Source of the DNA: Proteromonas lacertae | Lineage: Eukaryota | Length of the DNA stretch: 46,212 bases | NCBI GenBank assembly: GCA_002245135.1 | Contig: NGBS01000011.1 | Location: forward strand, 124,001 to 170,212 | Direction of reading: 5' to 3' | Shown here: in pieces, positions 10,769-38,687 of the stretch | How the letters are laid out: each line of letters opens with the position of its first letter | How positions within the stretch are numbered: position 1 is the first letter of the stretch | Notes under the pieces: generated by a model | Seen by the model: the letters and a program-made list of their open reading frames with translations, nothing else | Told to the model about the DNA's origin: nothing | Databases searched by the model: none | Made by a program: the position numbers and the translations under genes

Positions 10769-13700
10769 CTAATTATTGTATCCATAAGGAACTGTTTCAT
10801 AATCATCCTCAAAGTATCTTTTATCATCAAAATATGTAAGTCCTATCTTTTCTTCATAAGCAGTATAGATATGATGATTTCTACTTCTAATATGATTAAT
10901 ACCAAACTTTTGTTTAGAAACATATCCATCAACCATTTCAGTATAATCATCTCCTGTCATCTTACTTGCTATAGCTGTTATTAATCCTTTACATTTGTTG
11001 GAGGATTTGAGTGTACCATCATTAACACATTCCTTTTCATAATAGTAACATTTGGATTTCAATCCTCTAAACTTAGTGATGACATAGAATTTCTTACCAT
11101 CCTGTTCCTCAAATTTGAGTTTATTTAATGTTCCAGGTTTACATGATAATGAATCCCATTTGTAGTAATTACTGAAAGGAGGCATATTCAGATTACTTCC
11201 ATCTATATATTTTTGAAGATGATTGAAATTCCAATAAATATCCTTAGTCTTTACAGAAAAGAGGAGACTGTCAGTATCAGTCATTAAGAGTCTAACATCT
11301 TCTGGTGAATTGTAATGTAATACTCCATCATACCAATACTGTTGCATTAATAATTTAGAAAGAGCAAGGATAGTCATACCTATCTGAATAGGTTTATTAA
11401 TTTTGAACATCTTTTTATGATAATGTACTAATCTCAAATCTCCGTGAATAGTATCTATCTTATCAAACCAAGGATCTCTAATAGCTTTTCTTGCTTGATT
11501 TTCTGACACTACTAATTTGATACTTCTCCACTTATCAACTCTTTCTAAAGTTTTTCCATAAAGTGAATTAAGTAATTTCTTCATTATATTAGTAGTAGAT
11601 GTTTGATGCATTTCCTTCGCATAAACTCTCATATCCTTTAATTGATCAATATGTTTAGACATGTGTTTACTTTCCAAGAATGTTGGTACTTTATATACTT
11701 TTGTTACTCTATATCCATGATCAACTGCAAATTTGAGATTCTGATAATGGATGACATAATGTTCTTTAGGCAATAAATCAGTAACTAACTTTTCAGAGGA
11801 AACATATTTATGAACATCAGGATTTTTCTGATCATCCTCTTTTTGAGAGTATAATACTTCTAATTTTTCTTTGTGTATATCTGACAATTCATCATAGCTA
11901 ATCTTCCTTCTTGAAGGTAGAATAGGATATTCTCTTAAATACTCCTTATAATAGGAAATAGGTTCAATATCCACTTCTAACATATATCCTGTAGTTTCAA
12001 AGGAATCATTCTTATCATAGAATTTAGTAGAATCTAATATCTCATGAAGTTTAGGACAACCAGGATCTTCATAACAATAAAGATGTTAATTCCTTATAGG
12101 AAGTTTACATAAATACATTACTGAAGGATATAAGGAATTCATATCCTGATAAACAATAAACTTTGAAGGTTTCTTAGGATCATAATCCTTCATATATAAA
12201 TTATTAGCATCTTCTTTCCTCTTTCCTATATAGGATAATCCTCCATATAATCCATTAAGGATGAAATCATATATTTCAGGTTCATGAATTAACTCTATCT
12301 TAACTGAACTTTCTTTCAAGAACAAATCCAAAGATAAACTAGGAATTGATACATACCAACAAGGATCAATATGAAAGTGATTAAAGATGTTTTGTCTAAA
12401 ATCCTCAAATACTGAACATAGGATATAAACATCAATACTTAAATAGAAATTACAATATTCTCCTATAGAAGCTTTTCCTTCAAACAAAATGTTATTCACT
12501 TCCATTGCAAACTTATATTCATCTTCTGTTATTGTTGAATTGAATAAACTTGAATAGAAATCCTGAATCTTCAAATCCTTAAATTGATTATCATATTTTT
12601 CCAAACAATCTACATATTCATAAGGAAAGAAGTTTTTCTGAAGAAGATACTTATCAATGATTTCCTCATTTAATTCAGGAAAGTTATCATAAATGACTTT
12701 AAACTTTTCCTTTTTACAATTTAACTCTAAAGCTGTTATCTTTAAATCCTCTGTTAAACTAGATAATTTTTTAGAAAGGAATTGGTATGAATCAATGAAC
12801 ATTAATCTATCAAAGAATATAGCTTTATAATTTTCATCTGTAGAAGGAAGGATATCCAAATTTAAACTAGTCTGTTTAGCAATTTCTGCAAGTTCTCTAA
12901 TGATGAAATGCTGGTCATATCTCATAGCGTTATGACCAATTATAGGAATCTTGTATCCTTTTACTTTTATTGATAAGTTCTCTTTAGAATGAATTGAAGC
13001 AATGTACTTTCCAGTGAAATGATTATGGTGGAGGACTTTTGGATCAAAAGGAGTAAAAGGTTTACTACAAAAATCACAAACAGTTTTACTCATATAAATA
13101 GCTAAATCTTCCTCATTTTGATCCCAATCTTTAGGATATAAGTTTATTATATTATATAAGTGTTTTACATCTTTATATACTGTCATGATATCCTCCATAA
13201 ATTCTTTATCTAAATTTTCATCTTCGGATATCTTCACATTCACAATAGTTGTAGATTTAATTTGAGGAATTTTACTTTCAATATATAAACAATATGATTT
13301 TAACTTATGTTCATTTTTGAAGGATCTTAATGTTTTTGAAGGAAAGATTATAGGTTTGTCCTTTTCCTCTTCATCAATTGCAAATACATTTATATTTAAA
13401 TCATAAGTTTGCTCTACTTTATCTATATCAAGATTAGTAACAGGAGCTACTGGTATTGTAATAAAATCGCTACTAGGTTGTATTTGAGGTAAATGTTGCT
13501 TTTTTAAACATGAATTAATTGCTCTCCAAAAACAATCCATATTATCATTATCCTTATTTTCACAAGGATCTAAACAATACTTATTATTAAATATATCAGG
13601 AATATGATAATTTCCTCCTGCTCCTGCCATAATTTGGTATTGATTAATATGAGTTTCCATTAAATTTATATATTGGAATATTAAACCAGATTCTGGAGGA

Positions 13701-14254
13701 GAAAAGTCATCCTCATTATTAGAATGAAATAAGGAACGCATCTTTGCTGCTACTGATGCAGGACTATCATACTCATTTATTAAAATATTTCTTGTATTAT
13801 AAAATAAGGATACTTCCTCACCTGATTCATCTTCCGAAGAAGTATAAACATACCAAAATACAAAGTATACTTTAATATTTTTCATTTCATGTGCTATTTC
13901 ACTTATTCTTAAAGCAACATCTGTGTTATCAACAATGAAATTATAATAATCTTCAGGAGTAAGATGATGAATATCCTTTAAATTAGTAACGTACTTCCTT
14001 GTTACTCCTTCGGAGGATTGGCCTTCTAATTCATACCTTTTTAATCTTTCCTCTAAATTTCCTCTTGGAGGATGAATTCTATTATCATCCATATCATCAT
14101 CTCTTCCACCGAAATACATTCCATAATCAGGATATATAATATGTACTTGAGGATTATTATTTAAATTCCTTATATAGGAGGATTCACTTATATTCCTTCT
14201 TTTACTAGTTGCATTAATGAAATATTGGGAAGTACTATCCTCATTTTCTAGCAT
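10769..14254 (-). pseudogene. Polinton/Maverick-type protein-primed DNA polymerase B, with one in-frame TAA (12086-12088) and an apparent internal deletion
   Basis: The 722-aa and 404-aa ORFs are in the same frame. vOTU-like DCFWRAINSCL; Zn insertion CDFC..KVLHHNHFTGKY; ExoII GHNAMRYDQHFII; ExoIII YLSIDVYILCSVFEDFR; Pol A YQDMNSLYPSVM; Pol B KKLLNSLYGK; Pol C MTDTDSL; C-terminal FDDKRY. Confidence 0.93.
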
Positions 14255-14519
14255 CTTTTCTAATAAATGAGTTTTTGCATTTAAAGCATATTTTTCTGCT
14301 TATCAGTATTCTTCCTTTTATTCATGATTTTATACTTATAGAAATTCAAAACTAAAAAGAAAATAAAAAATGAATATACTTTAAAATAATTGGTCAAATA
14401 CAAATGTACACTAAATTTTGATTGGATAATGAAAAATCTACTAAAAAATCGTTACTTTTTTTATTTGCAATTTTCTTGCTATTTTTAACTATTTTTAAAA
14501 ATTTAACTTCTAAAAAATC

Positions 14520-15741: not shown

Positions 15742-16385
15742 TGTTGTGCGCCGTTTGTCAGAGTTGGCCGTTTGTCTACCAGACACTTTCAAAACAAACT
15801 AAATACACAATTACACTTCTTTTAATGAAAAATTGTTAATTTTATTTTAACATTTTGTATATGATAGACATGTCACGATATGACTTAATTAGTATATGTA
15901 ACAAATTATTTTACATAATCTATTAATACATATTAAGTACATGAATAATATAAAATATTATCTTACAACTCACTTCTGTTGTTGATATAAATAAAATAAT
16001 GTAACTAAAAACTTGAATTTTCTTACCCCCTTATTTGTACGAAAATCAATATTTTGATATAAATACTTGTTTTATATGCACATGTTTTTCATCTAAATCT
16101 ATAATTTTAGTTACAAAGTTAATATCTACAATATAAACAGAAATACAATCTTTAATCGACATGAATCTCAAAGCTACAACATATTAATGTATTTCATATT
16201 TCAATACCTTCTATAAAAATCATTCATTTCAGTGTGTAGCTAGTTACAATATATTTTTAACACTTAGCTTCTTTTGTATAATTTACAAAATTATAATTTA
16301 TGTGTTGTTTTTTATTTTATGTAATAGTATCAATGATTATGAAATGATACACATAAGTCACAGAAGAAAATTGAGAAGTGAAAAA

Positions 16386-16443
16386 TGTCTCCTAGACAAA
16401 CGGCGTATTTCTAAATCTTCTCACGCCGTTTGTCTAGGAGACA
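16386..16443. repeat. Internal perfect 21-bp inverted repeat containing the TIR core GCCGTTTGTC
   Basis: tgtctcctagacaaacggcgt (16386-16406), 16-nt spacer, acgccgtttgtctaggagaca (16423-16443). Confidence 0.9.
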
Positions 16444-16649
16444 CTTTTGATTTCTCATATTTCATATATGAGATAATCATAATATATTATTAACAAATAT
16501 AACAAAATTGAAATCAGAAAATAAGTTGAAACAACATTCAACTCAAATCTTTTTCCAAATTTGTTTTTTATGTTATGTGGATGTGTGTACCTAACAAACA
16601 CATTGTAATTATATAAAGATACTTTTTAGAATTTTTAAAGAAAATGAAA

Positions 16650-18002
16650 TTATATAAATCTATAAATGTTTTTTTTGTTGTAAATGTAAAACAATTTCGC
16701 TTTTTCTTCGTTATTTAAACTTTCTATACCTTCAATTAAATCATCAATGAAGTATTTTATATTAAAACTTTCTATATTTTGAATCTTTGTTATTTCCAAA
16801 TTATTCAATCTTGCTCCAAGAAAGAATAAACAGTAATATTCACAAGTTACAGCATCTGTTTGATGAACTTTTGTATCTACTATTTCATATGATTCTAATT
16901 CACGATTGCAAGAATGAAAGAGTTGTTTAATATTCTTTATTACTATATTTCTTGGTTCTTTGTTCATATAAATTGCTAAACTGTCATATATTCTAAACAT
17001 CATATAGTCATTAGGAACATAATCTACTTCCCATAAACTCCAATGACTTTGATTTGGATCACATACTGGAAAATAATAAATTCCTTTTTCACTTATCTTT
17101 TTTTTATTATCCTTTTGCTTTTCATTTAAAAATACAACACCAGGATCAATAACATTCTTATTGTTGTTGGAAATATAATGTAATAAAAACAGGAATTCAT
17201 CGCCTTTTAGTTGATTGTTAATATTTAAATGACTCACCAATTCTTTACAATTTACTTCATATTTCGGTTGTTGATGTTGTCCATAGAATCTTACATGACC
17301 AATATCATTATATCCTTTAATTTTCTTTACAAACAACAAACTATCATGAGTGTGATCATCATATGTAATTGATGCAACACTAGTATCTTTTCTATTTACC
17401 ATTTTACATGCATATTTTAAAGTCATTGAATTACGCTCTATCAGAAGGTGTATATAGGTTTTGAATAGATCAATCATGAGAATAATATCAACATCGCTTA
17501 TATATGGATGATCTTCAGACATCTTTATCATTAGCATTACAGCAGCCAATATTTCTGTTGCTTCAAGAAAGTTAGTATTAACATTGGTCTTGACAATCTT
17601 ATATTGAGATATTATTTCACCTACACTTCTATCATATCTACCAATACGACGAATACCTTCTGCATAATCATCTTTACCAAATGAATCTATAACTTCGATA
17701 GTTTTATTATCATGATGAATGATAACAGTGTAATAATTGTTACTATCTTTAGCTCTAATTATGAATGCTTCCATCTCTTTATTCATTATCATTTGTTTAT
17801 CTTTACATACGTAATAATGTTGATTTAAATTGTATAATTCCAATATGAAATGAATTTCATTTAATCCAAGTTGAATTTTTCCAATACTTTTTATAAATCT
17901 TTCAACAAATTCCAAGTGATCATTAGTTAATGGATCCTTAATATCTTCTTCAGAAGTTCTAATACCAAATATATCATACACTGCATTCTTCTTTGGATTC
18001 AT
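16650..18002 (-). CDS. Ulp1/SENP-like (C48) cysteine protease region of the Ginger polyprotein
   Basis: FPVCDPNQSHWSLW..IYDSL..HQTDAVTCEYYC gives the His-Asp-Gln-Cys order. A degenerate upstream copy reads NNYYTVII..EVIDSFG. Confidence 0.8.
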   Translation of the reverse strand: MNPKKNAVYDIFGIRTSEEDIKDPLTNDHLEFVERFIKSIGKIQLGLNEIHFILELYNLNQHYYVCKDKQMIMNKEMEAFIIRAKDSNNYYTVIIHHDNKTIEVIDSFGKDDYAEGIRRIGRYDRSVGEIISQYKIVKTNVNTNFLEATEILAAVMLMIKMSEDHPYISDVDIILMIDLFKTYIHLLIERNSMTLKYACKMVNRKDTSVASITYDDHTHDSLLFVKKIKGYNDIGHVRFYGQHQQPKYEVNCKELVSHLNINNQLKGDEFLFLLHYISNNNKNVIDPGVVFLNEKQKDNKKKISEKGIYYFPVCDPNQSHWSLWEVDYVPNDYMMFRIYDSLAIYMNKEPRNIVIKNIKQLFHSCNRELESYEIVDTKVHQTDAVTCEYYCLFFLGARLNNLEITKIQNIESFNIKYFIDDLIEGIESLNNEEKAKLFYIYNKKNIYRFI

Positions 18003-18200
18003 TACTATTTGCTGAAGTCTTTTTTCATAGGTGTTAATATCCTTTTTTTAGGATTAGGATGAATCTATTTAATATAAATTATCATCAAATATACTAGTAT
18101 TTTGTCTGCTGTTTTCTTCATATTCTCTAATAATTCTGATGAAACTTCAAGCTTTATTAAAGGTGTAGATGATACTAATGGAATTTGCATGTTTTCATTT

Positions 18201-19630
18201 CTATTCATTAGATAGTAATAATTTAATAATATACACTAAATATTGCTTTTTATTAACTTTATCATCTTTAACTAATGCTAGACTCTTTTCATCTTGGCAC
18301 ATCTTTCGTTTCACAGCTGTAATAACCACATCTCCATGTTCTGGATTAACTAGTTTATTTCCTAATTTCTTAATGGAATCATCTCTCATTTTGTTATTAT
18401 AATTGAAGTTTCTTTCGTCTATATAATCTTGAAACTGTTCTATTATATTTCCATTTTGTGTTATATCTTTTCTGATTCTATCTTTATAACTTCTTCTTCC
18501 ATTATTGTTACTTCACCATTACCGCTATTACCACCATCATCACTATTATCGCTATCATTACCATCTTCATCTACATCTATAACATGATCAGAACCACCAT
18601 TATTGCCATTAACGCCATTAGCACCTTCTTCTTCTTCATATTCACTGTCTGCTTTAACTTCTTCGCCATCACTGTCATCATTATCATCATTATTATCACC
18701 TTCTATATTAGTATAATCTGGTTTAAACTTCTTATTCTGAATCATCAACTCTTTCATGTCCATAAAGAATAAGGATCTTCCTTTACAATTTGTTCTTCTG
18801 CATCTATGATTATTAATTATTTCTGTTATTCTTTCCAAGTTTTCAGTCCAATAAACATCAGGATTATCAACCTTCATAGCTGCTATCTTTTCTTTAATGA
18901 ATCTATTATATCTCTCCACTTTACCATTGCACTGTGGGTGTCTTGGCTTGCTATGCGCAATTATAATACCATATTTACTAAGCATATCTTTCATTAAAGC
19001 ATTTTTGAATTCTTAACCATTATCCATCTGCATAATTTCAGGAGGACCAAAGATTCTTATAAAAGATTGTACATTTTTCACTGTTTCTTTATCTGTTTTG
19101 CGTTTCTGGGCATATAACATGATAAAATTAGAGTAATGGTCGATGACAGTTAAGATATAATGGTAGAGATCTTCTTCTTTTATGTTCGTGAAATCTTCAT
19201 TACAATTGTCCATTTCTACAAGATCAATCAAAACTCTTTCTCTAGGTCTTGTAACAACAATAGGATGTGTTGGTTGTACTCTTTTAGCCTCCTTAAGTTT
19301 AATACAATCATAGCAGGTTGTCAAATAAGCTCTAATCATCTTTCTATTAATACCATAATAACCATGAACTGGATCATTAATTACATCTCTTAAAGATGAT
19401 TCTTTACAATGGGCATTATCTCTATGTAACTTGTCTAAGAAGTCGAATGAATCTTCCAATTTAATGACTTCTCTTCCTTTAAAATACAGTTTACCTGTAG
19501 ATTCATCGCAAGTGTAATAGCCTCTATTGGCTGAAGTTCCAGCTAAATCATGAAAGAACTTGTACTTATTCTTATCAAAAGCTGCACAATCACGTGTCTT
19601 TTTATTGTTCTTTCCCTTCGGCTTTACCAC
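18201..19630 (-). pseudogene. Gypsy-like DDE integrase/transposase of the Ginger element (in-frame stop and frameshift; 5' end interrupted by element A)
   Basis: HHCC (LHRDNAH..CYDC), RPRERVLIDL, YILTVIDHYSNF, QMDNG*EF (in-frame TAA at 19013-19015), SKPRHPQCNGKVERYN. Confidence 0.92.
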
Positions 19631-19650
19631 CTTCTCTGGTATATAGTATA

Positions 19651-19845
19651 TAAATGGGACCCTGGGACATTGTCACAGAGTCCTAACGAGTTTTCTAGGG
19701 GTCCGTCCCTTTCTAGATTCAGAGTTGACTTTTACGGGGCCTTGCATCGATGAAGCTCCCGTAAAGGTCAACTCTGAATCTAGAAGGGGACGGACTCCTA
19801 GAACACTCGTTAGAACTCTGTGACAATGTCCCAGGGTCCCATTTA
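19651..19845. repeat. 195-nt imperfect palindrome (left terminal hairpin of A)
   Basis: taaatgggaccctgggacattgtcacagag...catcgatg...ctctgtgacaatgtcccagggtcccattta, centred on CATCGATG. Confidence 0.97.
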
Positions 19846-20088
19846 CGTAAGGTTCCTACGGGATTCCTCCTAACGGAGTCTACTTCCCTACGGAGACTCT
19901 TGGAAGCTATTTCTATACCTATCTATGAGACGATCTCCTACGGGTACTCCTGGAAGCTATCTAGAAGTGTTGATTACCTCGAGGTGATGAATCTAATCAC
20001 GCTCTTGACTCTCCTTGCTACGCTGGTGACCTTGTAAGGGCTTTTAATTGAACTGTGGAAACCAATCGTGGAACCGGGAGTTTACAGT

Positions 20089-20800
20089 TGTTAACTTGTT
20101 ACCAATTGTTAACTAGTTACCAATTGATAACAAGTTACCAAATGGTAACTCCGGGAGGTTCTAGCTAGTAGTGGATTTCTCAAGGGCCCTTGAAGATAAT
20201 GATTAGCAATCTCGGAAGGCTTCTGAAGGTATGTTTTATCATCCTTATAACTTTCCTAGATAAGTTCATCCAAGACCTTCCCGAGAAGAACAGCCGTGTT
20301 GGCAAGGAAGGGAATCTCCCACGATGGGAGATTCCCTGACGCAGTCATGCACGGCTGGACGTATCTGGGAAGGTGCCTTAATGGTTCTTCTATTAATCAG
20401 TGACTTTATAACTGGAGGTTCTGGTTAGTACTGGATTTTCTCAAGGCCTTGAAGATCATCGTAAGCATTCTCGCTTCCTAGAGGTAAGTCTAATCGTCCT
20501 TGTTAATCAACTAGGTAACATTCAACTATCATCTATCCTAGCAAGGAAGGGATGTTCCTCCTTGAGTTACAGCTCAAGGAGGAACCTCCTGACAAAGCCA
20601 AGGAACTTCCATCAAGAGACTGCATTACAAAGCCAAGGAACAGGATCATTGCCTAGGTAAGTTTCATTGCCCTTCTAAGACTTGAATCCAAGATGCTCCA
20701 GCTAGTTCTGAATTTCTCAAAGGCCTTGAAGATCGTGATAAACAATCTCGGGAGGGTTCTGTAGGTATCTTCCATTAGCCTTGTAAGTCATCTACTAGGA
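20089..20800 (+). repeat. Non-coding repeat/hairpin array in A (iterated TTGTTAAC/GTTACCAA, three ~110-bp degenerate units, two stem-loop cassettes)
   Basis: Units sharing (t)ttctcaa(g/a)ggcc(c)ttgaagat start near 20153, 20414 and 20696. Hairpins at 20310-20336 and 20554-20585. Confidence 0.8.
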
Positions 20801-21098
20801 AGCTCCTTACATACCAGTTTAGTTTATTTATTCCTGAAGGTAAAGTTCATTCCCGAGGACAGCATCATCATCTAAGCAATCGTAGAAACGTGAATACCGT
20901 GATTGGGAAGCTTAGGATAAGTAGGAACTTACCTGAGCACTTGTTAGAGATGTTACTGGAGGTAAGCTAATGAGCAATTTCTTAAGGTCAATTCCCCATC
21001 ATCTGTCCAATGGAGATTGAATAGGAATCATTCTGAAGCTATTCACTAAATACTGTAGCTGAACAATACATATACTAGGATCAGCAATCCATAAGTAA

Positions 21099-21163
21099 GG
21101 TCAAGATGCCCTAGTGGGCAGACCAGGTACCAACATCCCATCCCCTCCGGGTTCGAACCCCAG
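21099..21163 (+). ncRNA. tRNA-like RNA polymerase III unit (box A/box B), not a full cloverleaf
   Basis: Box A-like TGCCCTAGTGG (21107-21117) and box B GGTTCGAACCC (21150-21160), 32-nt spacing, T-arm-like CCGGG-TTCGAAC-CCCAG. Confidence 0.55.
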
Positions 21164-21718
21164 TACAGCTACTGCTTATATCTGAACCACCTCCTACATA
21201 GCCTTGCCTCATCAACTCAGGAGATCACCAGCAACTTTTAAGATCCAAATTCTAAAGAAAAAATTGAATAGAGATGAATCTGTAATCAACAGTTCACTAC
21301 GTAGTACAGTACCAGATACCCTAACACTGGAATGAGATCAACAGCAGGAGCTTAGGAAGCATTGAGTGACCCCTACTACAAGAAGCCTAGGAGTTGGAGG
21401 TGCATTCACAACTCTGATAAGGCCAAGAAAAATTGAACTGACCGGACTTAAGGACATCGTAAGGAAGGTTTAAAAATAGGGACATAGAAAATAGATCCTG
21501 GACTTAGTTGCTAAATTCCAATAGCTTATCTAAGTGATCAATATGTAGTAACCAGTTACAGACTATCTACTAATCATCATTCCTAGATATGAATAAGAAC
21601 TCATAGAAGTAAAGCTAATAAACAAGTGACTAATAACCATGAGATCAATATGTAGTAACCAGTCAATTATTACAGTCACTCAAGGCATTAAAATATTTCT
21701 AGTTATTTTTATACTTAA

Positions 21719-22507
21719 TTGGTAACCATGCAATCCATCGTCAAATGTAGTCGATGTAAGAAGGAGTTCCAATCTGAAGCTGATGGAAGAGCATACAGCT
21801 GTTGTAGTTCTTGTAGAGCTCTCTTACGAAAGGCAAAGCAGAAGACAATAGCCCGATGCCATGAGGAACGTAAAGCCTTGGAAGAGAACGGTGAACTCAT
21901 AGCCAAGACTATGTCCTGCAGTAGATGCCATATGCACTTCGCTTCATCGATGATGTTAAAGCCCAATGGAGACTACTATCGATGTTGTCCAAGATGTAGA
22001 TCTGGGAAACCTACTAAGAATCAACAACCAGGAATCTCCATCAACTCCAGTGATAAAACAAGGGATATAATTAATCAGCTTATGCAACACAGTATACATG
22101 AGATTCTTAAGACAATCAAGGACAACAATGATCTAATCGACCATGATGGGATGTTCGATAAGATTATTTCATTTCCATGTGATGCTGTTCACCTCAAAGA
22201 GAAGTCTTGCCAGGCCAAGATAGTTTTATCTATCAAAGATGGACATATCAACTTTCACGTAGATCCAAAGGTAAAGTCACTTCCGATGTGCTGTCTCTTG
22301 AGTCTGTATCATCGCTTAAGACAATATGAAGATCATCTCCGACTCAGGATAGAATCAATGAGGAGACAAAAACAGCTTAGTAATCCTCCGAAGAAGAGAC
22401 CGATAGCAACACCCTCACTACCATCGCTAGGTGCTTCAAGTGATCCTCCAGCAAAGCATCTAAAGCTAGCTTCTGAAGCAACTCCTTACCAGGCAAAGTC
22501 ATCATAA
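21719..22507 (+). CDS. Double Cys4 zinc-finger protein with C-terminal NLS-like motif (element A)
   Basis: CSRC..CCSSCR and CSRC..KPNGDYYRCCPRCR; PPKKRP. Likely ATG at 21728. Confidence 0.8.
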   Translation: MVTMQSIVKCSRCKKEFQSEADGRAYSCCSSCRALLRKAKQKTIARCHEERKALEENGELIAKTMSCSRCHMHFASSMMLKPNGDYYRCCPRCRSGKPTKNQQPGISINSSDKTRDIINQLMQHSIHEILKTIKDNNDLIDHDGMFDKIISFPCDAVHLKEKSCQAKIVLSIKDGHINFHVDPKVKSLPMCCLLSLYHRLRQYEDHLRLRIESMRRQKQLSNPPKKRPIATPSLPSLGASSDPPAKHLKLASEATPYQAKSS

Positions 22508-22514
22508 CTTCCAC

Positions 22515-22515
<1 letters not shown>

Positions 22516-22560
<45 letters not shown>
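22516..22560. repeat. (AGT)15 microsatellite
   Basis: Directly visible just after the Zn-finger stop codon. Confidence 0.97.
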
Positions 22561-22561
<1 letters not shown>

Positions 22562-23751
22562 AACGCATCTCCTGATAAGGAACGTGATTAACATTGTTGG
22601 TACTTAGTAAAATGTTACCATGGGTATGACCGAGGACAATAGAAATAATCAATTCAAGGAACCTTACGGAGATGAGCAACTCAAGGACATGGTAAGTAAT
22701 CAATTCAATAAACTAAAGGAGTCTTGGATAAGTTAATGATAGTAAGGACATCAACAACCCTGAGATAACATCCTTGGATCAATGACTCTGAAGATCATGA
22801 AGTAGTTGTAGGTACATAAAGAGTTACAATTGCAGACTATAGGAAGTGTGATCGATAATCCTTTACCTGAGTAGTCCTTACTTGTGATGCTAGGAATCAT
22901 TACTAGTAAGTAAGTAAGTAGACCAGAGATATCGTATACTCCTCAAGTAGCAACACTGGCATAGATGTCCAAGAGTCTATAAGCTATCGATCGTAAGGTG
23001 ATTATCAGTAGATAGGTAAAGACACTGACTTCAATAACAATACCGAGACTAGTAGTGATCAGACTGAAGGCTAGTAAATTACCGAGGATCAACAACTTCG
23101 ATGAACTAGAACTAGAAGGAATTGTCACTTGAGGGGTTACCATCAGTTCAAGAGATAGGTATCGGTAAAGATCACAAGTAGTTCTTCAAGAGATGTTAAG
23201 GATGAGATCAACTCTAACTTCAGCAGTCAGTCTCAAGGTACTTACCATAGCAGTGATCATAGACTGCTAGAACCAAGAGTGAAGACAAAGTACTTCATAG
23301 GTAATGCCTGCCACGTTCGAGAAGTCCAAGAAGGTAAAGGAGCATCTGGAATAGAGACGATTAGTAGATCCTTGGAAGTCAAAGCTGCAAGTGAAGTCTA
23401 TAGAGAGTAGTTGAACTTCAAAGGAGGCTTCTGACCATCGTATAAGTCTTATCGGAATAGAAGCATTGTAAGTTAAGATGGTAGATGATGATCGAGACTA
23501 TGAAGTGCACAGCATAGAGATCACGCAACTCATTACAAAGACCGATAAAGTCATCTACATCCATCAGCTAGTAATCGTAAGGAGTTGAAGTTCATCGTGT
23601 GGATAGAGTAAGCAAGGTACTTCTCGGGAGGTAGGCAAAGCTGTTGAAGGCCAGGACATGCTATGATATAAAAGATACCTGAGAAGTCATCTAAGTAAAG
23701 TAGCTCCTGGATCTATAAGTAAAGTTCTGATCTGGAATCATTACCTAGGCA

Positions 23752-26211
23752 ATGTTCAACGCCGGGAACAACTCACGTGAGAACGATGAGGAGATGTTAA
23801 GGTTGCTTAATACTATTGACAAGACTACTTACGATGTGAAGCAAAAGATAGATGGGAAGGTCGTTGTTAAGTATGATAAGGACGTGTTGTTCCAAGACTC
23901 CCAGGAAGTGATTCAAAAAGCCTTGGGTTCTGGTGAACTCAAGGCCGTGATAGACTATGATAAGATCAATCCTCCATTGGTAAGCACTATCCAAGAAGTC
24001 CTCCGAGGAACACTAGTCAGTATCAATCAGAAGCAACAAGAAGAAGTAACCTCATCCACAACAGCTATCAAGAGAAAGTTAGATGATCACTCGGAGGAGT
24101 CATCTACGAAGTTGGCTAAGCTAGAAACTGATCATCAACAACTCCATGAGTATCTTCAAAGCACCTTACAACCAGATCATAAAGCTATTCAATCGACCTT
24201 AAAGGAAGTGCTAGATGAGACTGATAAGATTGAAGGTATCGATCAGAAGCTCCAGGAAGTCAAGAACCTAGGTACTTTGCTTAACAACAAGATCCCTAAA
24301 GACTTCGGAGATACGACTATTACAACCTTGAGCAATATCATTACTTGTGGCAATGAACTTAAGCAGTACACGGAGAAGCAATTACCAGAGTTGTATAAGA
24401 GCATGGAGGATGTAAGCAATGCCCTTGAATCCACCAACACTTCAATCGATCAATTGAAGGGATCAGAGGATGAGAAATTGGATCGTCTAAGTACCTTGTT
24501 GAAGTCATTATGCGAGAGTCTCAATATCGGGGATGTTAACGTCTACGATATGATCAAGTACATCACTACGGTGGATGATAAGAGCCTTACGAAGCTCACT
24601 GACTTAGAGAAGCAGATCAAAGTAACCTCCGAGGAGTTGATCAAGATGAAGAACAACTACGAGGAGTACAAGGCAATCAATACTGTGATCAACAATAACA
24701 TGATTAAGTTCAAGGAGGTCTTACAAGAGATTGAGATTGCCAATGGTTACAACAAGGACTTCAAGAACCAGATGAATGCTATGGAGGAAGAGATCGCCGG
24801 GTTGAATGGAGAAGCTGACAAGACGAATACCTTCTGTACTGCGGAGAGAGCTACCGCTATTGACAAGACCAAGGATATTGTAAGTAAGATAGATATCGAT
24901 AATATCAACCAGTATTGTAGTAGCTCACAGAAGGAGAAGATTGATAAAGTCCATGAGCTGATCACCGGCATAGCCATCGAAGACATTAACAACTACTGCT
25001 CCTTGGAGAGACTTACCATTGTCAAGAGTATTGAGGAACTGATCAAAGGATTCATTACCGATAAGAGAACTAAGGAGCTCGACGATGCCGACATTACAAT
25101 CAAGGAGTTTTGTACTATCCCGAGAAGTGCTGCTATCGATGAGACTAACACTGCTGTGAAGCACTTCTGTACTTCGGATCGATCGGAGAAGATAGATAAG
25201 TGTTATGAGCGTGTCCATGACCTCAACAAGGAGAGTATTAACCAGTTCTGTACTGAAGGCCGAGGTAACTTCATTGATATAACAAAGGCCAGCACCGATG
25301 CAATCAAGATCAAGGTGGATTCTCTAAGCATCAACGATGTGAATGCCTCCTGTGGCGTGGCTAGAAGGACTGAAGAAGACAACCTCCGAAGGAACTTGGA
25401 TGGCTTCTTTAACAACACTCGTAAAGGACTGATCGATACAGCTATCAACAATGCAGCTGCTATCAGAACCAAGATCGATGGATTCAATACTGGGAATGTC
25501 AATAGCTTCTGTTCACCAGCTCAATTAACCAAGGTCAATGAAGTACATTCAAAGATAGGAGATTGCCAGACAAGAGTCATTGAAGTCCAAGGCAAAGTCA
25601 ACAACCTCAACAACCTGGCTGTGACTCAAGTAAATAACTTTACCAGTGCAGCTCAATTAAGTAAGATCAACTCAGTCGATAGCAATGTCCAGGATGTCCA
25701 GAAGAAGTTGACCGAGTTGAAGACATCAGTAGAAAGTTTGGCTTCTCAAGGAGATGGATCATCGGAGATCAAGACCGTACTTAACCAGATGAGTAACACC
25801 TTGTCTTCGATATTGAACATGACAGCAGCTAGCATGGACTCTCCTCTGGTGGCAGTTCCCATAAGCTTCTATAGTACAGTAAGACCTGATTGTATATTTG
25901 AATGTTTACTTAAGGCTTACGTCAATCGTGTAGAGCTGGAGTTCATATCAAGCAGCGGATGGATCGGGAAAGTGTGGGTGAAGGATGTGAATGCAAAGGG
26001 CTTTGCTAAGTTCAAGGAGTGGTTCCATCTTGATAAGAAGATAAGTCACTGGGTTGTTCCCAATCCTAGCGATCCTAACGTGACTGATTATGACAGACAC
26101 TTCCTTGAATTCATCCCCGCCGACAATTCAATTCATTGTGAATTCGGTATGATGCCAGGTAATGGAACAAGAGCAATCTGTATAGATGCTAACTTCAATG
26201 GTCCTCAATAG
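23752..26211 (+). CDS. 819-aa coiled-coil repeat protein with a small beta-rich C-terminal domain (fibre-like; element A)
   Basis: Intact ORF. Long heptad-like region and ~10 repeats of [IV]NxFC[TS]xxRxxxID, ending in an aromatic/beta-rich ~120 aa tail. Confidence 0.8.
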   Translation: MFNAGNNSRENDEEMLRLLNTIDKTTYDVKQKIDGKVVVKYDKDVLFQDSQEVIQKALGSGELKAVIDYDKINPPLVSTIQEVLRGTLVSINQKQQEEVTSSTTAIKRKLDDHSEESSTKLAKLETDHQQLHEYLQSTLQPDHKAIQSTLKEVLDETDKIEGIDQKLQEVKNLGTLLNNKIPKDFGDTTITTLSNIITCGNELKQYTEKQLPELYKSMEDVSNALESTNTSIDQLKGSEDEKLDRLSTLLKSLCESLNIGDVNVYDMIKYITTVDDKSLTKLTDLEKQIKVTSEELIKMKNNYEEYKAINTVINNNMIKFKEVLQEIEIANGYNKDFKNQMNAMEEEIAGLNGEADKTNTFCTAERATAIDKTKDIVSKIDIDNINQYCSSSQKEKIDKVHELITGIAIEDINNYCSLERLTIVKSIEELIKGFITDKRTKELDDADITIKEFCTIPRSAAIDETNTAVKHFCTSDRSEKIDKCYERVHDLNKESINQFCTEGRGNFIDITKASTDAIKIKVDSLSINDVNASCGVARRTEEDNLRRNLDGFFNNTRKGLIDTAINNAAAIRTKIDGFNTGNVNSFCSPAQLTKVNEVHSKIGDCQTRVIEVQGKVNNLNNLAVTQVNNFTSAAQLSKINSVDSNVQDVQKKLTELKTSVESLASQGDGSSEIKTVLNQMSNTLSSILNMTAASMDSPLVAVPISFYSTVRPDCIFECLLKAYVNRVELEFISSSGWIGKVWVKDVNAKGFAKFKEWFHLDKKISHWVVPNPSDPNVTDYDRHFLEFIPADNSIHCEFGMMPGNGTRAICIDANFNGPQ

Positions 26212-26698
26212 TCGATGTGTGTTGGGTGAACTATCGGAGGATAACTATAAGCAGTGACCACCTTCGGAGCTGCCCAACCATGCTGCAAATAGATTACCTT
26301 GCTTTGTTGGGCAGCAATAACTCCAAGAGATTCAACAACCCTGGATGATGATCAAATGAAAGTACCTTCTCAATGATCCTGGTAATGAAGAAATCAGTTC
26401 TTCTTCCAGGTATGGACAAGAACGTCTACGATGGAACCTTCCTTACCAAGTCCGATATTGCTCCGCAACATCGTCCTTGGTAAGGAAGCTTCCTCTGAGA
26501 CATTCTTACCCATACTCCGAAAGAGATCACTGCTTCTTCATTACCATCACCTTGTGGTAACCTACACTTCTAGATAGCTTCCAGGAGTCCCCGTAGGAGA
26601 TCGTCTCATAGGTAGGTATAAGTAGGTATAGAAATAGCTTCCAAGAGTCTCCGTAGGGAAGTAGACTCCGTTAGGAGGAATCCCGTAGGAACCTTACG

Positions 26699-26893
26699 TA
26701 AATGGGACCCTGGGACATTGTCACAGAGTTCTAACGAGTGTTCTAGGAGTCCGTCCCCTTCTAGATTCAGAGTTGACCTTTACGGGAGCTTCATCGATGC
26801 AAGGCCCCGTAAAAGTCAACTCTGAATCTAGAAGGGGACGGACTCCTAGAACACTCGCTAGAACTCTGTGACAATGTCCCAGGGTCCCATTTA
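26699..26893. repeat. 195-nt imperfect palindrome (right terminal hairpin of A)
   Basis: Inverted copy of 19651-19845 with a better-paired outer arm. Confidence 0.97.
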
Positions 26894-26939
26894 TATACTA
26901 TATACTCTGGTTGGTCATTTTTTGCCAGTAACACCTTTA

Positions 26940-29900
26940 TCCACTCTCTTTTAAAGTTCTTCTTTCTATTCCGAAATTCACTGGTAAATTACCTATGTTA
27001 GTTATTGTAAATGTCTTCGTCTTGCAATCAATTCGAACTACATTACCAAAATCTACTACAACCTAAATGTAAATTAGATATTTTCTTATTCGCCATTTTT
27101 GTTGTTTTGCCTGTTTTATTACTGATATTTGTTAAACCAGTTTCAGGTGTTTTTGTGGTTTTATCAACTACTCCTTCACTTTTTGAACCATTTATTGATG
27201 TTCCATTTAATTCTTTCTCTTTTCGAGGTAAACATAAATTAGCAGGATTTTGATAGTTTATTTCATCTAATAATAAATCAATATAATATAATCTTAATGC
27301 TTCAGATTCTCTATCAACTGTGATTTGTAATCCTGTTGTATTCTTTCCTGAAGGTAATTTGTTCGTATTTGTTCGTATTTATCATTCTGTTGTGAATTCT
27401 TACTTCTGACAGAAACTGATTTTTGACTATTTACTCTTGCAGTATATTGTTTCTTGTTTTCATCTTTTTCTTTTTCTTTAGATTTTTCTTCTTCTGCATT
27501 TGTATTTGCTATTGTTGGTTCTTCACTATGTGGTGCTAATTCTCCTTCAATTTTTGGTTCTGGTGGTAATTCTTTTAACCATGTGTTGGTGAATTAACTG
27601 GAACTCCATCTACAATTATTGGCTTTTCAGCTTCAACTGGTTTTTCTTTTTCTTCTTCTGTTGATGGTTGTTCTGGCTGTTGTTGTTGTCTTGCTTCTTC
27701 TCCTTCAGTATTTATAATAGTGTTATTATTACTTTCATCTATTGAAGATTCCACTACTTCAGGTAAAGATGGTTGTTGTTTGATTGGTGATGGTAAAGCT
27801 GGAATGATAATGGATGTTCTGTATTGGATAATTCAATCAATCTATCAGCTTCTTCCAAGTAATGTTCCCAATTATCTGGTATTACCAATTCAGCATCATT
27901 CACTTTGATATTTGCATAAATACCTGTTATATAAAGTGGAAAATCTATTGGAACATAATGAGCTATTTCTATTACTAATTTCTCTATTACTGAATCTGGA
28001 ATTCCTACTCCCATCTTAACAGAGATTCTTTGTTGATCATGAGATGGAATTAATCCATTACATGGTGAAACACCAACTAAACCAGGTCGAGATACACTAT
28101 CAGTTGAGATTTTAAATGGAAAATCTACTGAACCTGTATTAAATATATGAAAATCTCTTTCTTCTACTTTCATATAAGGAATTCTACCAAAATCAATATT
28201 CTGTTTATCCAATCTATAAGATACTACAGAACTTTCACCTTTCATTTTGATATTATAAACTGGTCCTCCATCTACATAACATTTACCCAATGCTCTTGAT
28301 AATACATGTAGTATTCCAGAATATCTCAATTCCATTTCTTCACATTCACCTATTTATAAAATACCTTGAATTGGAGTGATTTCAAATACTTCATTGATTG
28401 GAGATGTTTGATTTTCAGTTTCATCTATTTCTAATTCCCAATGATAAGGACAAGGAATTGTTCGACGATTTTCAGTTCAAAATCAAAATCATTTTTAGAT
28501 AACCATAAATTGGGAAAGGCAACATCAGCTGCACATGGAATTGAATCTTTCTGAGGATGATCTTCATATCTTATATTCAATATTCCATTTATTTTACATG
28601 AGATTTTATCATCTTTATAATTTGGATCAAATTCCACTGTCACATTCATTGATTCATTTGGTTCTAAATGGAATTCATTCATACTCAATAATAATGGAGC
28701 TGCTATACTTATTATCACATCTAAACTCAATGTTGATATATTCTTAAATACAACTGTCTTACTTTGAACTTCGATTTTCTCTTCAGAACATTGAATTAAT
28801 GGATTCATAAAGTTCACTTTTACTTCGGTTTCTTTTGCTTCATTATTTCTTATTTCTCCATCAAATTTCCTCAAACAAGAAAACATTTTCATCACTTCAC
28901 AGGGTTTTTCACAACTTCCAGATGTTACAAAATTACAAGCAGTATTGGGTTTTAATTCGATTGCATTGGGAGTTATAGTAAATATAGCTTCATAAGGTTT
29001 GAATTCATTTCACTTTCCATCTTTGATTTATTGGCTTTAAAAGATTTTTCTTTTTCTGCTGCAGTTTGATTTATCCAAGTTAATCTTTGACTTCTTAAAC
29101 CTCGGTTTTCTAATAAAAATACTCTTTCGATTGTTCTGTTTGTGAATTGATCACCAAAATCAATTACATCTACTGGATCTTCTCAAAATATTGTTGTTAT
29201 TATACATTTAGCTGTAACTGGAAGAATTTCACTATCTCCTTCAGTTGCTGCTATGTATATTGTATCTTTATAAGCTGATACATCTTCCAACATACAACTA
29301 ACTACTATCTTTTGAGATTCTTTACTTTGTAATATACCATCAACTATATCAGTATTAAAATAAAATCCTCGTTCAAAATCTAATTTATAAAAAGCTGGAA
29401 TTGAAGTTGGATTAGTTATTGTAAATTCTTTTGTATGAGTATCTAAACAAGTTATATCACCAAATTTTATATGATTTAAATTTGACTTTATCACTGGTCC
29501 AAGTCCATTTGCTTCTAATACTAATACCAATGGAGGATATTGACTGCCAATTATTTGAATATATAATGGAATTCTCAAATCACCTAATTTCTCAGGATTT
29601 AATTAAACTTGAATCATTTGAGTTGCCATTGGTCCAATTACACCTTTAGCTGGATCAGGGAAATAACTACCAATCGATTTACTTCTTTCATCTTGTTCTG
29701 TTTTCAAATTGAGCACTTAAATTGGATTTATTCTTTAATGTTAAAGTTCGATAATAAGTATATCTTAAATAACAATCTCCATATTTCAATGATTCTTCTA
29801 ATAATTCTACTTCAGCTACTCGACATTCAGCACTTATTGGAATTGTTAATAAAGCTTCACCTACACTTTCAATATCAATTGCTAAACAATAATCATATAC

Positions 29901-30390
29901 TTTTATTGTTTGAGATATGAAATTGACTTTGATTTTCTCTTCTCCTTCAGGTAATATTGTTGCTACTGCTTGAATTATTTCGAATTCTTTGTTTAAGTAA
30001 TTACCATCTTGAGGAACTCGTAAATTGAATATAAATGGAACAGAGGAAGTATTTCTTAATATCAAATCAGTTGAGTTTAAAAACGCATAACTTACAATAC
30101 CAAAATCTAGTTTATTCTTATTAAAGAAGAATGTTGGACCAACTACATGCCCTTTTATTGTTAATACCACATTATTAGTTGCTCCTTTTAATGCAAATTC
30201 AAAATGATCACTAAATTCACCAAGAGTTGAACTTGTATAAGATACTTCGATTGTTACACTTTCTTCTATATCTAATTCACCTTGGTGGAGTAAATATTAC
30301 ATTTGGTTTAATTGATCCTTCATTGGTAAGTGATACTTCATATCGATGTGTTGAATTAATAAATATATCACCAATATCTAATACATCATA
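26940..30390 (-). pseudogene. HYDIN: Hydin-like fragment (more N-terminal portion), multiply frameshifted, inside the Ginger TIRs
   Basis: YDVLDIGDIF; KGHVVGPTFFF..LDFGIVSYAF..NTSSVPFIFNLRVPQDG; CYVDGGPVY..GESS..IDFGRIPY; VVDFGNVVRIDCKTKTFTITNIGNLPVNF. Confidence 0.85.
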
Positions 30391-30433
30391 AAATGTTTGA
30401 GAGGTTTGAATTGATTTTTACTAAATTGACTTT

Positions 30434-30499
<66 letters not shown>

Positions 30500-30500
<1 letters not shown>

Positions 30501-31335
30501 AGTGATTTTACTTTTACTTAAGATAATTTTCGAAAAACTTAAGCAAGCCTTCGAGTTATTTTCAAAATACTTAAGTGTGAAACCGACATTTTCTAAAAAC
30601 TTGAGATTTATTGCGAAATACTTGAGCTTTTTTCAAGCTCTCTTTTAAAGTGAGATATTTCATTTTAAGTATAATAAACCTATAACAGTTTATATTTTAT
30701 TTATGATATTGTAGATATTATAACTGAGAATTGTAGAGGTTATAGTAACTAATAGTAGTAAATTAGGTTGAAATACCGATCTTCTTGGTATAATACTTTC
30801 AAATCCTATTCTGCTGAAGATTATATTTAATTATATGATATTATTGTAGTTATAAATCTGTCATTTACATTTATACTGTTTTTTGTGGAATTATTACTCA
30901 GATTATCATAAGAATGTGTTTACTATCTTTTTTTAATAATAATATGTGGAAATGAAAGCATATATAGTAATTATAGAAGTATTGATATAATGTGTAATTT
31001 ATATGTGTTGTAGTTGTTATTAATATCAGAATTAAGTAGTGTTAATTGCATGTGTATAACAAGCGTTTTAATTGTATGTATAGTCATATCAGCAGTAATT
31101 ATACATTATATATTGTTAAAAGATGAATTGGTTATTGTTTGTATTATGTATTGTGTTTTTATTATACTTAAAATGAAATATCTCACTTTAAAAGAGAGCT
31201 TGAAAAAAGCTCAAGTATTTCGCAATAAATCTCAAGTTTTTAGAAAATGTCGGTTTCACACTTAAGTATTTTGAAAATAACTCGAAGGCTTGCTTAAGTT
31301 TTTCGAAAATTATCTTAAGTAAAAGTAAAATCACT

Positions 31336-31336
<1 letters not shown>
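30500..31336. mobile_element. Tc1/mariner-type MITE (837 bp, 179-bp TIRs, TA TSD) inserted in a (TAA)n microsatellite
   Basis: ta|CAGTGATTTTACTTTTAC.. (30500-30678) and ..GTAAAAGTAAAATCACTG|ta (31158-31336). (TAA)n on both sides (30435-30499, 31337-31370). No transposase. Confidence 0.93.
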
Positions 31337-31371
<35 letters not shown>

Positions 31372-32044
31372 TATATATATATAAATATATAGTACTTACA
31401 TTTTGATTTTCTGAAATTAAAAAAAACTGTCAAGTTTGACAAGCTTGATTTTTCTTTTTTGAAATATCTTCTTATCTTGATAGAATTTTATAACATTCTT
31501 CAAAGTGTCTGCTGAAATTCATTTTTTCTCTTTGACTGAATCAAAAAAACATACAAACAAAAAAGTTGAAGAAAATGAAATTTTAAATTAAAAATGACGT
31601 CAGAAGGGGTATAATTCTTAATTCCTGTGTAACTGACACTTCTCATTTAGACATTATATGTCAATAAAAACATAAAATTTGGAATATACATAATTTCTAG
31701 AATATATTTTGATAGTTTTTATTCAATATTATGACAATTAATAGTTACTCATAGATGTAGGTTATATGACAAAGTAAGTATAAAAGTAACAATTTTTCAT
31801 TAAAAGAAGTGTAATTGTGTATTTAGTTTGTTTTGAAAGTGTCTGGTAGACAAACGGCCAACTATGACAAACGGCGCACAACATATGGGTTTATACTTTA
31901 GCAAGTTGAAGTGGTTTAGCTTTTGCAGACATATACAAAGTTTGTATTTCAGAATAAAGTAAAAAGAATTTTAGAAGATCAAATAATAATGAGGCATTTC
32001 TACTCAAAAGGATAACAAGATAATCTCGACTATATTAATTTTGG

Positions 32045-35097: not shown

Positions 35098-35389
35098 CCC
35101 ATATTATGAAGACAAAAAAAATACCATTATTATAACATTTTGTTGTATTATAAAATACTTTAACTGTTTGTATTTTAGTGAATGAAACATTTAAATAAAA
35201 TAGTTTATGTGATAAGACAATAACAAGATTAAAGTTTTAAAGTAGAAACAGCTCATGATAAATGAAGGTGCTGAATGAGAGGAAGAAGATAATGAAGGTA
35301 AATCTATATAGTATATAAATGGGACTCTGGGACATTGTCACAGAGTCCTAACGAGTTTTCTAGGGTACCTTTATTATCTTTTATTTCCT

Positions 35390-35460
35390 TTTGCAAGATT
35401 TGAACCCGGTTGGGCTAGTACTTCCTACGGCATTCCTCTGACCATTCGGGCTACGCCCCC
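35390..35460 (-). ncRNA. tRNA-derived RNA polymerase III unit (box A/box B), acceptor stem not closed
   Basis: Minus strand GGGGGCGTAGCCCGAATGGTCAGAGG..CCGGGTTCAAATCTTGC. Box A TAGCCCGAATGG, box B GGTTCAAATCT, 35-nt spacing. Confidence 0.6.
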
Positions 35461-35693
35461 AAGGAAATGAACCTTCAATCATGTATATATACCTTCATAT
35501 ATTGAAACCACTAATTTGCAATTCTATTATGACTATCTTGTAACGACTAAATTCAATTCTATTTTGACTAATACCCAATACACTGGTACTATGTATTGCA
35601 TTTGGCATTTTACAATTAATGGTTATGAATCGACACTTCTCATAGTTTCAAATTTCCTGCACTTTTTAAACTTTGTCAATTACGTAATTTACC

Positions 35694-37021: not shown

Positions 37022-37108
37022 TTCCCTTTACTTTGCTTACTCTCGTTATTGTTTCTGGGAATCCCTAAGCACTAGTTTCATAATAAAAAATACTGTTTAA
37101 GTAAAGCT

Positions 37109-37774: not shown

Positions 37775-37777
37775 TCA

Positions 37778-38287
37778 CTAGACCGCATTAACCATCAAGC
37801 AATGGAACTTAAGTCTTAGACTAGCAGCTTTCTTATAGACTGGATAGTAGATCTCAGACTTACACTTTCCCATCGTGTACTCTGCTGATATCATTCCTTC
37901 CATGGAGTATAGGAATAGACATGCCCGGCTCTGGTAAATGCTCTTCTCTACGATCTCATGATCCTTCAACTCACAGTCGGTGATACGATGAAGGCAAGTC
38001 CTTAACACTTCCTTAGCTTTGATCACTGACTGATGAACTACCTTGAGTAACATCCTTACTGAGCTGTGAACTTCCAAGTCACTCTCAGTGATTCCTTTGT
38101 TAGCATTGTCGATCATGATAAAGTGCGTGTCCAGAGCTAATTGTTCACACTCCGATAACTTCTCTTGAGCTTCCTTGACTAGAAGAGTCCATTCATTACC
38201 TTCTTGGATTCCACGATCGGCCTTATGAATACACACTCTCGGGTAGATTGGTAAGAGTCTCTTGTCGGGTTGATGAATTGAGATCAT
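37778..38287 (-). CDS. Hypothetical helical protein (element B)
   Basis: 169-aa ATG-started ORF, 3 bp from the next gene. Confidence 0.6.
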   Translation of the reverse strand: MISIHQPDKRLLPIYPRVCIHKADRGIQEGNEWTLLVKEAQEKLSECEQLALDTHFIMIDNANKGITESDLEVHSSVRMLLKVVHQSVIKAKEVLRTCLHRITDCELKDHEIVEKSIYQSRACLFLYSMEGMISAEYTMGKCKSEIYYPVYKKAASLRLKFHCLMVNAV

Positions 38288-38660: not shown

Positions 38661-38687
38661 TCCTTGATAAATTACCTTACTGTACTT

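Follow-up and report, generated by a model that had tools for sequence, protein, structure and literature searches.

Long imperfect hairpins just inside the ends of gene-poor, Polinton-like elements in Proteromonas lacertae

Vertebrate Mavericks are described as producing 6-bp target-site duplications and as carrying terminal repeats of 46-1447 nt with the end motifs (AG)3, (AGT)2 or (AC)3A (PMC8097293), and rve integrases typically produce 6-bp duplications (PMC12220804). For the exit of Polintons from the chromosome and the onset of their replication there is so far only a model, which connects short terminal tandem repeats with protein priming and a single-stranded racket (PMC4196379). Polinton polymerases carry a viral OTU domain that is thought to cleave off the terminal protein and that has been inactivated in adenoviruses and bidnaviruses (10.1101/2024.03.18.585575). 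Among the viruses of Halocafeteria, all complete virophages of subtypes 1, 2, 5 and 6 and the PLV of subtype 4 are reported to have palindromes that lie in the terminal repeats, adjacent to the target duplication (10.64898/2026.07.28.741278). Hairpin priming has already been proposed for these virophages and the one PLV subtype in that preprint, as an untested model with accidental annealing as its alternative.

The DNA analyzed here, referred to as the window, is a stretch of 46,212 nt from Proteromonas lacertae (contig NGBS01000011.1, assembly GCA_002245135.1, positions 124,001 to 170,212 of the forward strand). It is a nest composed of a broken Polinton polymerase gene, a Ginger-like element, an element designated A inside the Ginger-like integrase gene, and a second element, B, in a fragment of 40% GC. 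Element A (19640-26904; strand not applicable) is 7265 nt long and has 42% GC compared to 27% in its surroundings. Perfect copies of the 6-bp sequence CTCTGG (19634-19639 and 26905-26910, both plus strand) directly abut its termini at 19640 and 26904. The target of A was the rve integrase gene of the Ginger-like element (18461-19639, minus strand), which A interrupts; the frame of this gene reaches both sides of the CTCTGG duplication, which indicates that the insertion was precise. The terminal inverted repeats of A are about 350 nt long with 94% identity, a length within the Polinton/Maverick range of 50-1500 nt. The inboard part of the left repeat (19846-19989, plus strand) differs from the right end by 6 substitutions in 144 aligned nt, and its counterpart on the right lies at 26545-26698 (minus strand). 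Subterminal DNA at 19990-20097 (plus strand) is common to A-left and B-right and absent from A-right.

Element B (35305-42482; strand not applicable) is 7178 nt long with 41% GC, has the same ends as A and, judged by its subterminal DNA, lies in the opposite orientation. It is flanked by perfect copies of TAAATC (35299-35304 and 42483-42488, both plus strand), and its terminal inverted repeats are present only as remnants. The left end is truncated after 61 nt, leaving the tail and the first 50 columns of the outer arm (35305-35365, plus strand). At the right end, which has about 460 nt in common with A-left, subterminal and inboard repeat DNA with 7% substitutions relative to A-left (42165-42432, minus strand) is followed by a collapsed hairpin (42433-42471, plus strand) and a tail with one substitution (42472-42482, minus strand). 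The collapsed hairpin retains 39 of 195 nt, the other 156 having been lost at a junction with CAGAGT microhomology. Outside the ends A and B have no similarity, protein level included, and their cargoes are unrelated. B is itself embedded in a third, degenerate segment of 40% GC (35245-35298 and 42489-43270), which resembles A and B in composition, is without ends, and has no similarity to the cargo of A or B.

The motif (TA)3 opens all four ends of A and B. Both elements begin TATATA and have 6-bp duplications, as opposed to the TGTNR termini and 4-5-bp duplication described for Ginger DNA transposons (PMC2836005). The original prediction of integrase-type ends was thus borne out, with perfect 6-bp duplications at both elements and a (TA)3G motif that resembles the Maverick motifs (AG)3 and (AC)3A.

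Each end of A carries a hairpin of 93 + 9 + 93 nt, or 195 nt in total, that starts at base 12. At the left end the outer arm (19651-19743, plus strand) is followed by the asymmetric 9-nt spacer GCATCGATG (19744-19752, plus strand), within which CATCGATG occupies 19745-19752, and by the inner arm (19753-19845, minus strand), which is identical to the inner arm of the right end (26699-26791, plus strand). The right spacer (26792-26800, minus strand) and right outer arm (26801-26893, minus strand) complete the second hairpin, and the spacer has the same orientation relative to the element end at both ends. The arms mismatch at seven positions on the left and four on the right. DNA folding gave -98.7 kcal/mol (z -22.9) for the left hairpin and -107.3 kcal/mol (z -26.2) for the right one, and none of 200 shuffles of either folded as stably. 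The palindromes scored 72 and 81, whereas the best score reached in 20 base-shuffled versions of A was 7-10, and a 21-nt motif of the arms occurs seven times in the window against 0.01 expected. These results indicated that the hairpins of A are not due to chance, and the coordinates first noted, 11 nt inside each terminus, were exact. The 11-nt tails outside the hairpins (19640-19650, plus strand, beginning (TA)3G, and 26894-26904, minus strand) were unpaired in all four folds of the ends of A. The tail has no complement near the hairpin and no match to the DNA inboard of it, and it is kept at all four ends of A and B.

Of the nine strongest local palindromes in the window, six fall in A. Further palindromes, clustering just inside the ends of A, lie at 20077-20152, 20309-20337, 20550-20589, 26380-26546 and 37257-37291, and three related units of about 270 nt begin near 20150, 20410 and 20693 in A.

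The differences between the arms were compared by column, with every arm read from the element end inwards. In A, the left outer and inner arms disagree at columns 32, 42, 50, 60, 80, 89 and 90. The four variant words originally quoted for this arm (columns 32, 42, 50 and 60) were correct, but columns 80, 89 and 90, together with a change at column 36 that only the right outer arm has, had been overlooked. The right outer arm was described as mostly matching the inner arm, and it does have the inner-type base at columns 32, 42, 50 and 60, while it remains outer-type at 80, 89 and 90; the switch falls between columns 61 and 79, and columns 80, 89 and 90 are mismatched at both ends of A. The right outer arm therefore appears, from its base pattern, to have been partly rewritten to inner-arm sequence, as template switching would do. 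Template switching is reported to homogenize the arms of inverted repeats and to be able to invert the spacer (PMC8604942).

The left remnant of B differs from A-left at a single one of its 61 nt, and at each of the three variable columns that it covers (32, 42 and 50, the last being its final base before the breakpoint) it has the outer-arm base. The probability of this agreement by chance is about 2e-6, which excludes coincidence and indicates that B-left and A inherited these outer-arm bases. That B carries the same variants thus held for the three bases, but a sharing of the mismatches themselves could not follow, the inner arm of B-left being absent. Because the partner arm of B is missing at those columns, the shared bases show common descent but do not show selection, and the claim that mismatches are conserved between elements reduces to identity by descent of three outer-arm bases. 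Selection on the mismatches was rejected as an explanation, since B-left was not significantly more conserved than inboard DNA (1 of 61 versus 17 of 241 differences from A; Fisher p = 0.14). At column 11 all four arms of A have C and all three surviving arms of B have T, which suggests that one change spread between arms in one lineage. Flop isomers were seen at none of three informative ends (both ends of A and, by its outer-arm type, B-left), a result with a 1-in-4 chance expectation on few ends and of limited meaning for flip/flop, since template switching alone can invert a spacer. The history of the arms is read from two whole and two partial ends in one assembly.

Neither element encodes a recognizable replication or integration machinery of its own. 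The long ORFs of A had no polymerase, integrase or capsid match in Pfam or PHROGs, scans which did detect the flanking rve gene; degenerate stretches of A were judged for an integrase by eye. The long ORFs of B likewise had no polymerase, integrase or capsid match in Pfam or PHROGs, and in B a dedicated polymerase profile matched only the N-terminal-domain ORF described below. Capsid, ATPase and protease had no Pfam or PHROGs match in either element, although such libraries often miss capsids of this kind, and no HUH/Rep nickase matched an ORF of A or B, although a nickase could act in trans. The cargo of A includes a Cys-rich ORF of 259 aa (21728-22507, plus strand), with no family and with Atlas matches all under 0.9, and an ORF of 819 aa (23752-26211, plus strand), with a long helical repeat region and a predicted beta-rich C-terminus. 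The 819-aa protein had no homolog among 7,990 candidates and no usable Atlas match, and the model of its C-terminus gave no structural match at E 0.001, which is uninformative at its pLDDT of 41.5. None of ten window proteins was found in the exact-match collection. Candidate tRNA-like units at 21100-21175 and 35388-35465 were rejected (ARAGORN found none; fold z -0.6 and -0.1; relaxed thresholds gave noise).

One ORF of B (356 aa, 41053-42120, minus strand) encodes a stand-alone OTU-fold domain and zinc finger of the Polinton polymerase N-terminus. A profile built from 120 Polinton-type polymerases matched this ORF over the N-terminal part of the profile (E 1.6e-9 within the set of window ORFs), and apart from it only the polymerase gene at 10772-14299 matched that profile among window ORFs of at least 40 aa. 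The ORF also matched one of 1.84 billion representatives, a protein of the same domain; a search of viral contigs with it found no locus. Aligned with 62 relatives, it has Ser at the catalytic column where 61 have Cys, and it keeps the His present in 60 relatives as well as four zinc ligands. From these residues the OTU-fold domain is likely dead. The predicted model has a pLDDT of 79, on an alignment of polymerase relatives that biases it to their fold; compared with 48,161 chains it gave 22 matches at Z of at least 5, all of the OTU type, the best at Z 7.6 (under 8; rmsd 3.6, 111 aligned), and it also matched an adintovirus protein (E 4.8e-6). Another gene of B (35763-36776) has at 35817-35846 a candidate intron of 30 nt with GT-AG borders, whose removal would leave a first exon of 18 codons in frame; this suggests nuclear transcription. 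The window holds two short intron candidates, of 27 nt and 30 nt, and a blind scan of the window for short introns had no discrimination. Together with the hydin-like sequence and a GC content of about 27%, these candidates are consistent with a protist of flagellate descent, Blastocystis or a kindred organism having been considered; a search with hydin gave two matches, neither of them informative.

The polymerase gene of the window (10772-14299, minus strand) lies outside A, at a distance of 5 kb, and encodes a broken protein-primed B-family polymerase of the Polinton type. It has 707 relatives, the best 87% identical, and compared to its closest relative it has one in-frame stop and one internal deletion. 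Its GC content is 28% compared to 42% in A, and terminal repeats of this neighboring Polinton were not found in the window. We consider it a candidate for the helper lineage of A. A diverged copy of subterminal DNA of A (about 20018-20200) lies at 8459-8620 (plus strand), 2.1 kb past the 3' end of the polymerase gene. The copy is oriented as A-left, more AT-rich, different at 25 of 146 aligned nt, and cut at 8453 by an inverted repeat of the Ginger-like element; it is possibly the end region of the neighboring Polinton.

The Ginger-like element (15742-31884, also 8322-8453) has TGT... inverted repeats, an rve integrase and flanks of GATGG and TATGG that form a near 5-bp duplication, and it encloses A, a hydin fragment and a MITE. 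Its 450-aa ORF looks Ulp1-like by eye and has no Pfam match. An AT-flanked palindrome of 114 nt (16358-16471) bears the word GACAAACGGC, as do the Ginger-like repeats. Intron-free, frameshifted hydin-like sequence occurs at 1472-3614 (plus strand) and about 27750-30300 (minus strand) and may be a pseudogene, a captured fragment or the result of sequencing error. The MITE-like insert (30464-31372) has 215-nt inverted repeats and is flanked by long (TAA)n runs. Three or four minus-strand ORFs at 3534-6950 (320, 279 and 434 aa) start where hydin breaks; they are possibly Polinton virion-internal genes and matched no family.

The 6-bp duplications, the inverted repeats, the end motif and the OTU domain of B together indicate that A and B behave like non-autonomous Polintons. 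For autonomous Polinton/Maverick elements, a protein-primed polymerase and an rve integrase of their own would be expected, and neither gave a match. Our preferred reading, to which we assign a probability of roughly 55%, is that A and B are non-autonomous Polinton-type elements copied by a helper from their extreme ends, and that the hairpin is a fold-back duplication which snaps back on displaced strands. The hairpin likely goes back to an old duplication of bases 12 to 104 of the end, the stem likely folds during copying but probably does not prime synthesis, and A and B were likely moved by the integrase of the helper.

By analogy with Polinton biology, the protein-primed polymerase of a helper would start at the terminal TA repeat, copy the tail and displace the other strand from its 5' end, so that the 11-nt tail would be retained with no extra steps. 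The displaced end would fold at once into the 93-bp stem (computed stability -97 to -111 kcal/mol), leaving just 11 nt of it uncapped. The end-to-end panhandle, at -418 kcal/mol compared to -369 and -366 kcal/mol for the four-way form, is about 50 kcal/mol more stable, which suggests that a second round would be unblocked and that the racket model still works. Because this stem would form on the displaced strand immediately, the arms could be patchily copied from each other by template switching, as the mosaic right arm and column 11 suggest, and end-to-end copying would keep the hairpin at both ends. Once chromosomal, the palindrome would be unstable and would tend to be deleted. Such a deletion is observed at B-right, with its loss of 156 nt at microhomology, and B-left is cut at base 61; as a rule it is an extrapolation from one end.

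Several points weigh on this reading. The link to a helper is thin, consisting of one diverged 160-nt fragment near a Polinton of 28% GC. Both ends hold a 93-bp stem at a constant position although the structure is unstable, which suggests a function, one that copying by a helper explains weakly; the stem may serve in end protection or as a putative platform for binding at its GGGAC repeats, or it may merely persist. As a counterpoint, the Halocafeteria palindromes are reported to occur preferentially with elements that lack a protein-primed polymerase (10.64898/2026.07.28.741278).

The main rival is self-priming, which is possible but clearly the less probable of the two. Once the element has been excised or nicked at base 11/12, or the flap has been trimmed, the 3' outer arm would fold back and prime a host or helper polymerase; the element would be freed from the terminal protein, and the tail would be restored from the opposite end via the panhandle before integration. 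This reading is favored by the recurrence of the long stem at either end of A, always 11 nt from the terminus, by the lack of a polymerase match in A and B, by the lost catalytic Cys of the OTU domain of B, and by the proposal of the same model for the Halocafeteria virophages of subtypes 1, 2, 5 and 6 and the PLV of subtype 4. The mosaic right arm of A could also be a flip/flop recombinant. Against it stands the 3' end, an unpaired flap; terminal resolution would have left an end copied from inboard DNA, and this flap is no such copy. The base-paired 3' terminus of parvoviruses was found in none of the four folds, and a tail-restoring step would be needed in each cycle. Parvoviruses, poxviruses and asfarviruses have either a paired 3' end or a closed end, with flip and flop isomers as the result. 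Plain self-priming requires a paired 3' end, as in parvoviruses, and terminal or cruciform resolution, as in parvoviruses and poxviruses, regenerates ends only to the boundary of the palindrome. Either would lose the 11-nt tail, yet all four ends keep it, which conflicts with both as an ordinary cycle; the self-priming or cruciform-resolution origin originally proposed does not, as stated, accommodate a tail that is unpaired and non-complementary to inboard DNA. The absence of flop from the three informative ends and of a nickase or Rep match from A and B also argues, if weakly, against self-priming.

A further, unlikely possibility is that A (7265 nt) and B (7178 nt), being of much the same size, represent segments or satellites of a virus-like replicon of linear DNA with several parts. 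The two would share only their ends, start replication from hairpins with no terminal protein, rebuild each 11-nt tail from the opposite end and enter the chromosome with the help of a borrowed Polinton integrase; replication with no terminal protein would account for the likely dead OTU domain of B.

Cruciform resolution, in which a junction nuclease would cut the extruded ends to give a hairpin-capped linear DNA like a poxvirus telomere, is quite improbable. The imperfect stem with its asymmetric center is compatible with such a step, and an endonuclease-VII-like insert of the helper polymerase could do the cutting: many relatives of the window polymerase carry PF02945, and the window polymerase itself contains a CxxC...HxH..G motif. 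However, a cut at the base would leave the tail on the host side and re-integrated copies would be tail-less, whereas four of four ends have the tail, and although these polymerases often have the endonuclease-VII insert, none of five comparator ends had a hairpin. No flop isomer was present among the three informative ends. Even less probable is a non-Polinton origin, in which A and B would be non-autonomous foldback-type elements mobilized by a conventional cut-and-paste transposase with 6-bp duplications as its footprint, and with the OTU domain as picked-up cargo. The lack of an integrase or polymerase in A and B, and their likeness only at the ends, would fit, but the end motif, the duplication length and the B gene all point to Polintons, and the Ginger-like element of the window, with its TGT ends, differs from them in its duplication, which is shorter.

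We give still less weight to a role of the hairpin as RNA, in which read-through would produce a 93-bp double-stranded RNA that feeds small-RNA control. On the inward-reading strand, five of the six transition mismatches become pairs of the G-U type, but this strand bias was not significant (p = 0.11), no Rfam match was obtained at E up to 1 in 19600-43300, and the fixed position next to the end would be left unexplained. An artefact of assembly or polishing, with a fold-back read creating the palindrome or mis-mapped reads the mosaic right arm, is the least credible reading: the frameshifts of the nearby hydin gene could be sequencing errors and the left/right arm differences alone could stem from polishing, but two whole copies share the same offset and asymmetric center, two partial copies have variants of their own, the 6-bp duplications are intact at both elements, and arms that differ at 4 and 7 places are not the product of a fold-back read, so that an assembly fold-back is an unlikely source of the palindrome.

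To place these ends among relatives, viral contigs were searched for loci with a related polymerase. Five of 36 such loci hold a distant inverted repeat of at least 140 nt, four of these starting at a contig end. None of the five repeats contains a local palindrome, and folding of the first 220 nt of each gave -13 to -29 kcal/mol. This is in keeping with the earlier statement that a long hairpin is not routine in Polintons, although hairpin ends are under-sampled in this comparison, since long hairpins may interrupt short-read assemblies. Each of two exact end patterns had no occurrence in viral contigs, and blastn of 19640-20300 against plasmids gave no match. Five loci from a metagenome scan matched only 21-25 nt of the pattern and had no long hairpin at the match, and were treated as chance. 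Unrelated metagenome contigs (L001-L005) have in common a tandem word, TGGGAC-N2-TGGGACA, which is perhaps an iteron-like motif of other replicons. Egoviruses were considered and set aside, the portions of their description that we used giving no link to A or B (10.1101/2024.03.23.586382). In the literature open to us, with subscription papers outside its scope, there was no report of a hairpin of about 200 nt inside the Polinton-type ends of gene-poor elements.

The ends of A offer a sharp test case for how such elements replicate, with a 93-bp stem and seven marked mismatches that record arm-to-arm copying. The 11-nt tail separates the models, as it would be kept under protein priming and lost under plain hairpin priming. 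A and B also represent a family of elements of about 7 kb that swap whole cargo between shared ends. Since such hairpins would tend to collapse once chromosomal, surveys would under-count hairpin-ended elements.

Among known systems, parvoviruses, poxviruses and asfarviruses resemble A in having a long imperfect stem with an asymmetric center at each end. A differs from these viruses in its 11-nt non-complementary tail outside the stem, its integration with duplications, and the lack of a Rep or resolvase match in A and B. Transpovirons and bidnavirus segments are linear DNAs of about 6-8 kb with inverted ends. A and B resemble them in their size of about 7 kb and their inverted ends, but are integrated in the chromosome with 6-bp duplications and have no helicase-polymerase or polymerase match. 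Bidnavirus polymerases further have an inactivated OTU domain (10.1101/2024.03.18.585575), as B probably does.

The likeness to Polintons and Mavericks includes the 6-bp duplication, inverted repeats of a few hundred nt and a dinucleotide motif repeated three times (PMC8097293, PMC4196379), together with the polymerase-type OTU domain in B and the Polinton polymerase gene nearby. A and B differ from them in their length of 7.2-7.3 kb, compared to the 13-25 kb given for Polintons, in having no polymerase, integrase, ATPase, protease or capsid match, in a (TA)3G motif outside the three end motifs given for vertebrates (PMC8097293), and in the 195-nt hairpin inside the repeat of A, with no counterpart in five comparator ends. 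In Halocafeteria, the palindromes described are 52 nt long (subtype 5) and belong to complete viruses of about 24 kb, and longer palindromes may exist there; in A the palindrome is 195 nt, lies 11 nt in from the end, is a mosaic of mismatches and belongs to an element with no recognizable core genes. What A has in common with Halocafeteria seosinensis is the placement of palindromes in terminal repeats next to a target duplication, and fragments that have repeats and duplications but lack core genes are reported there as well (10.64898/2026.07.28.741278).
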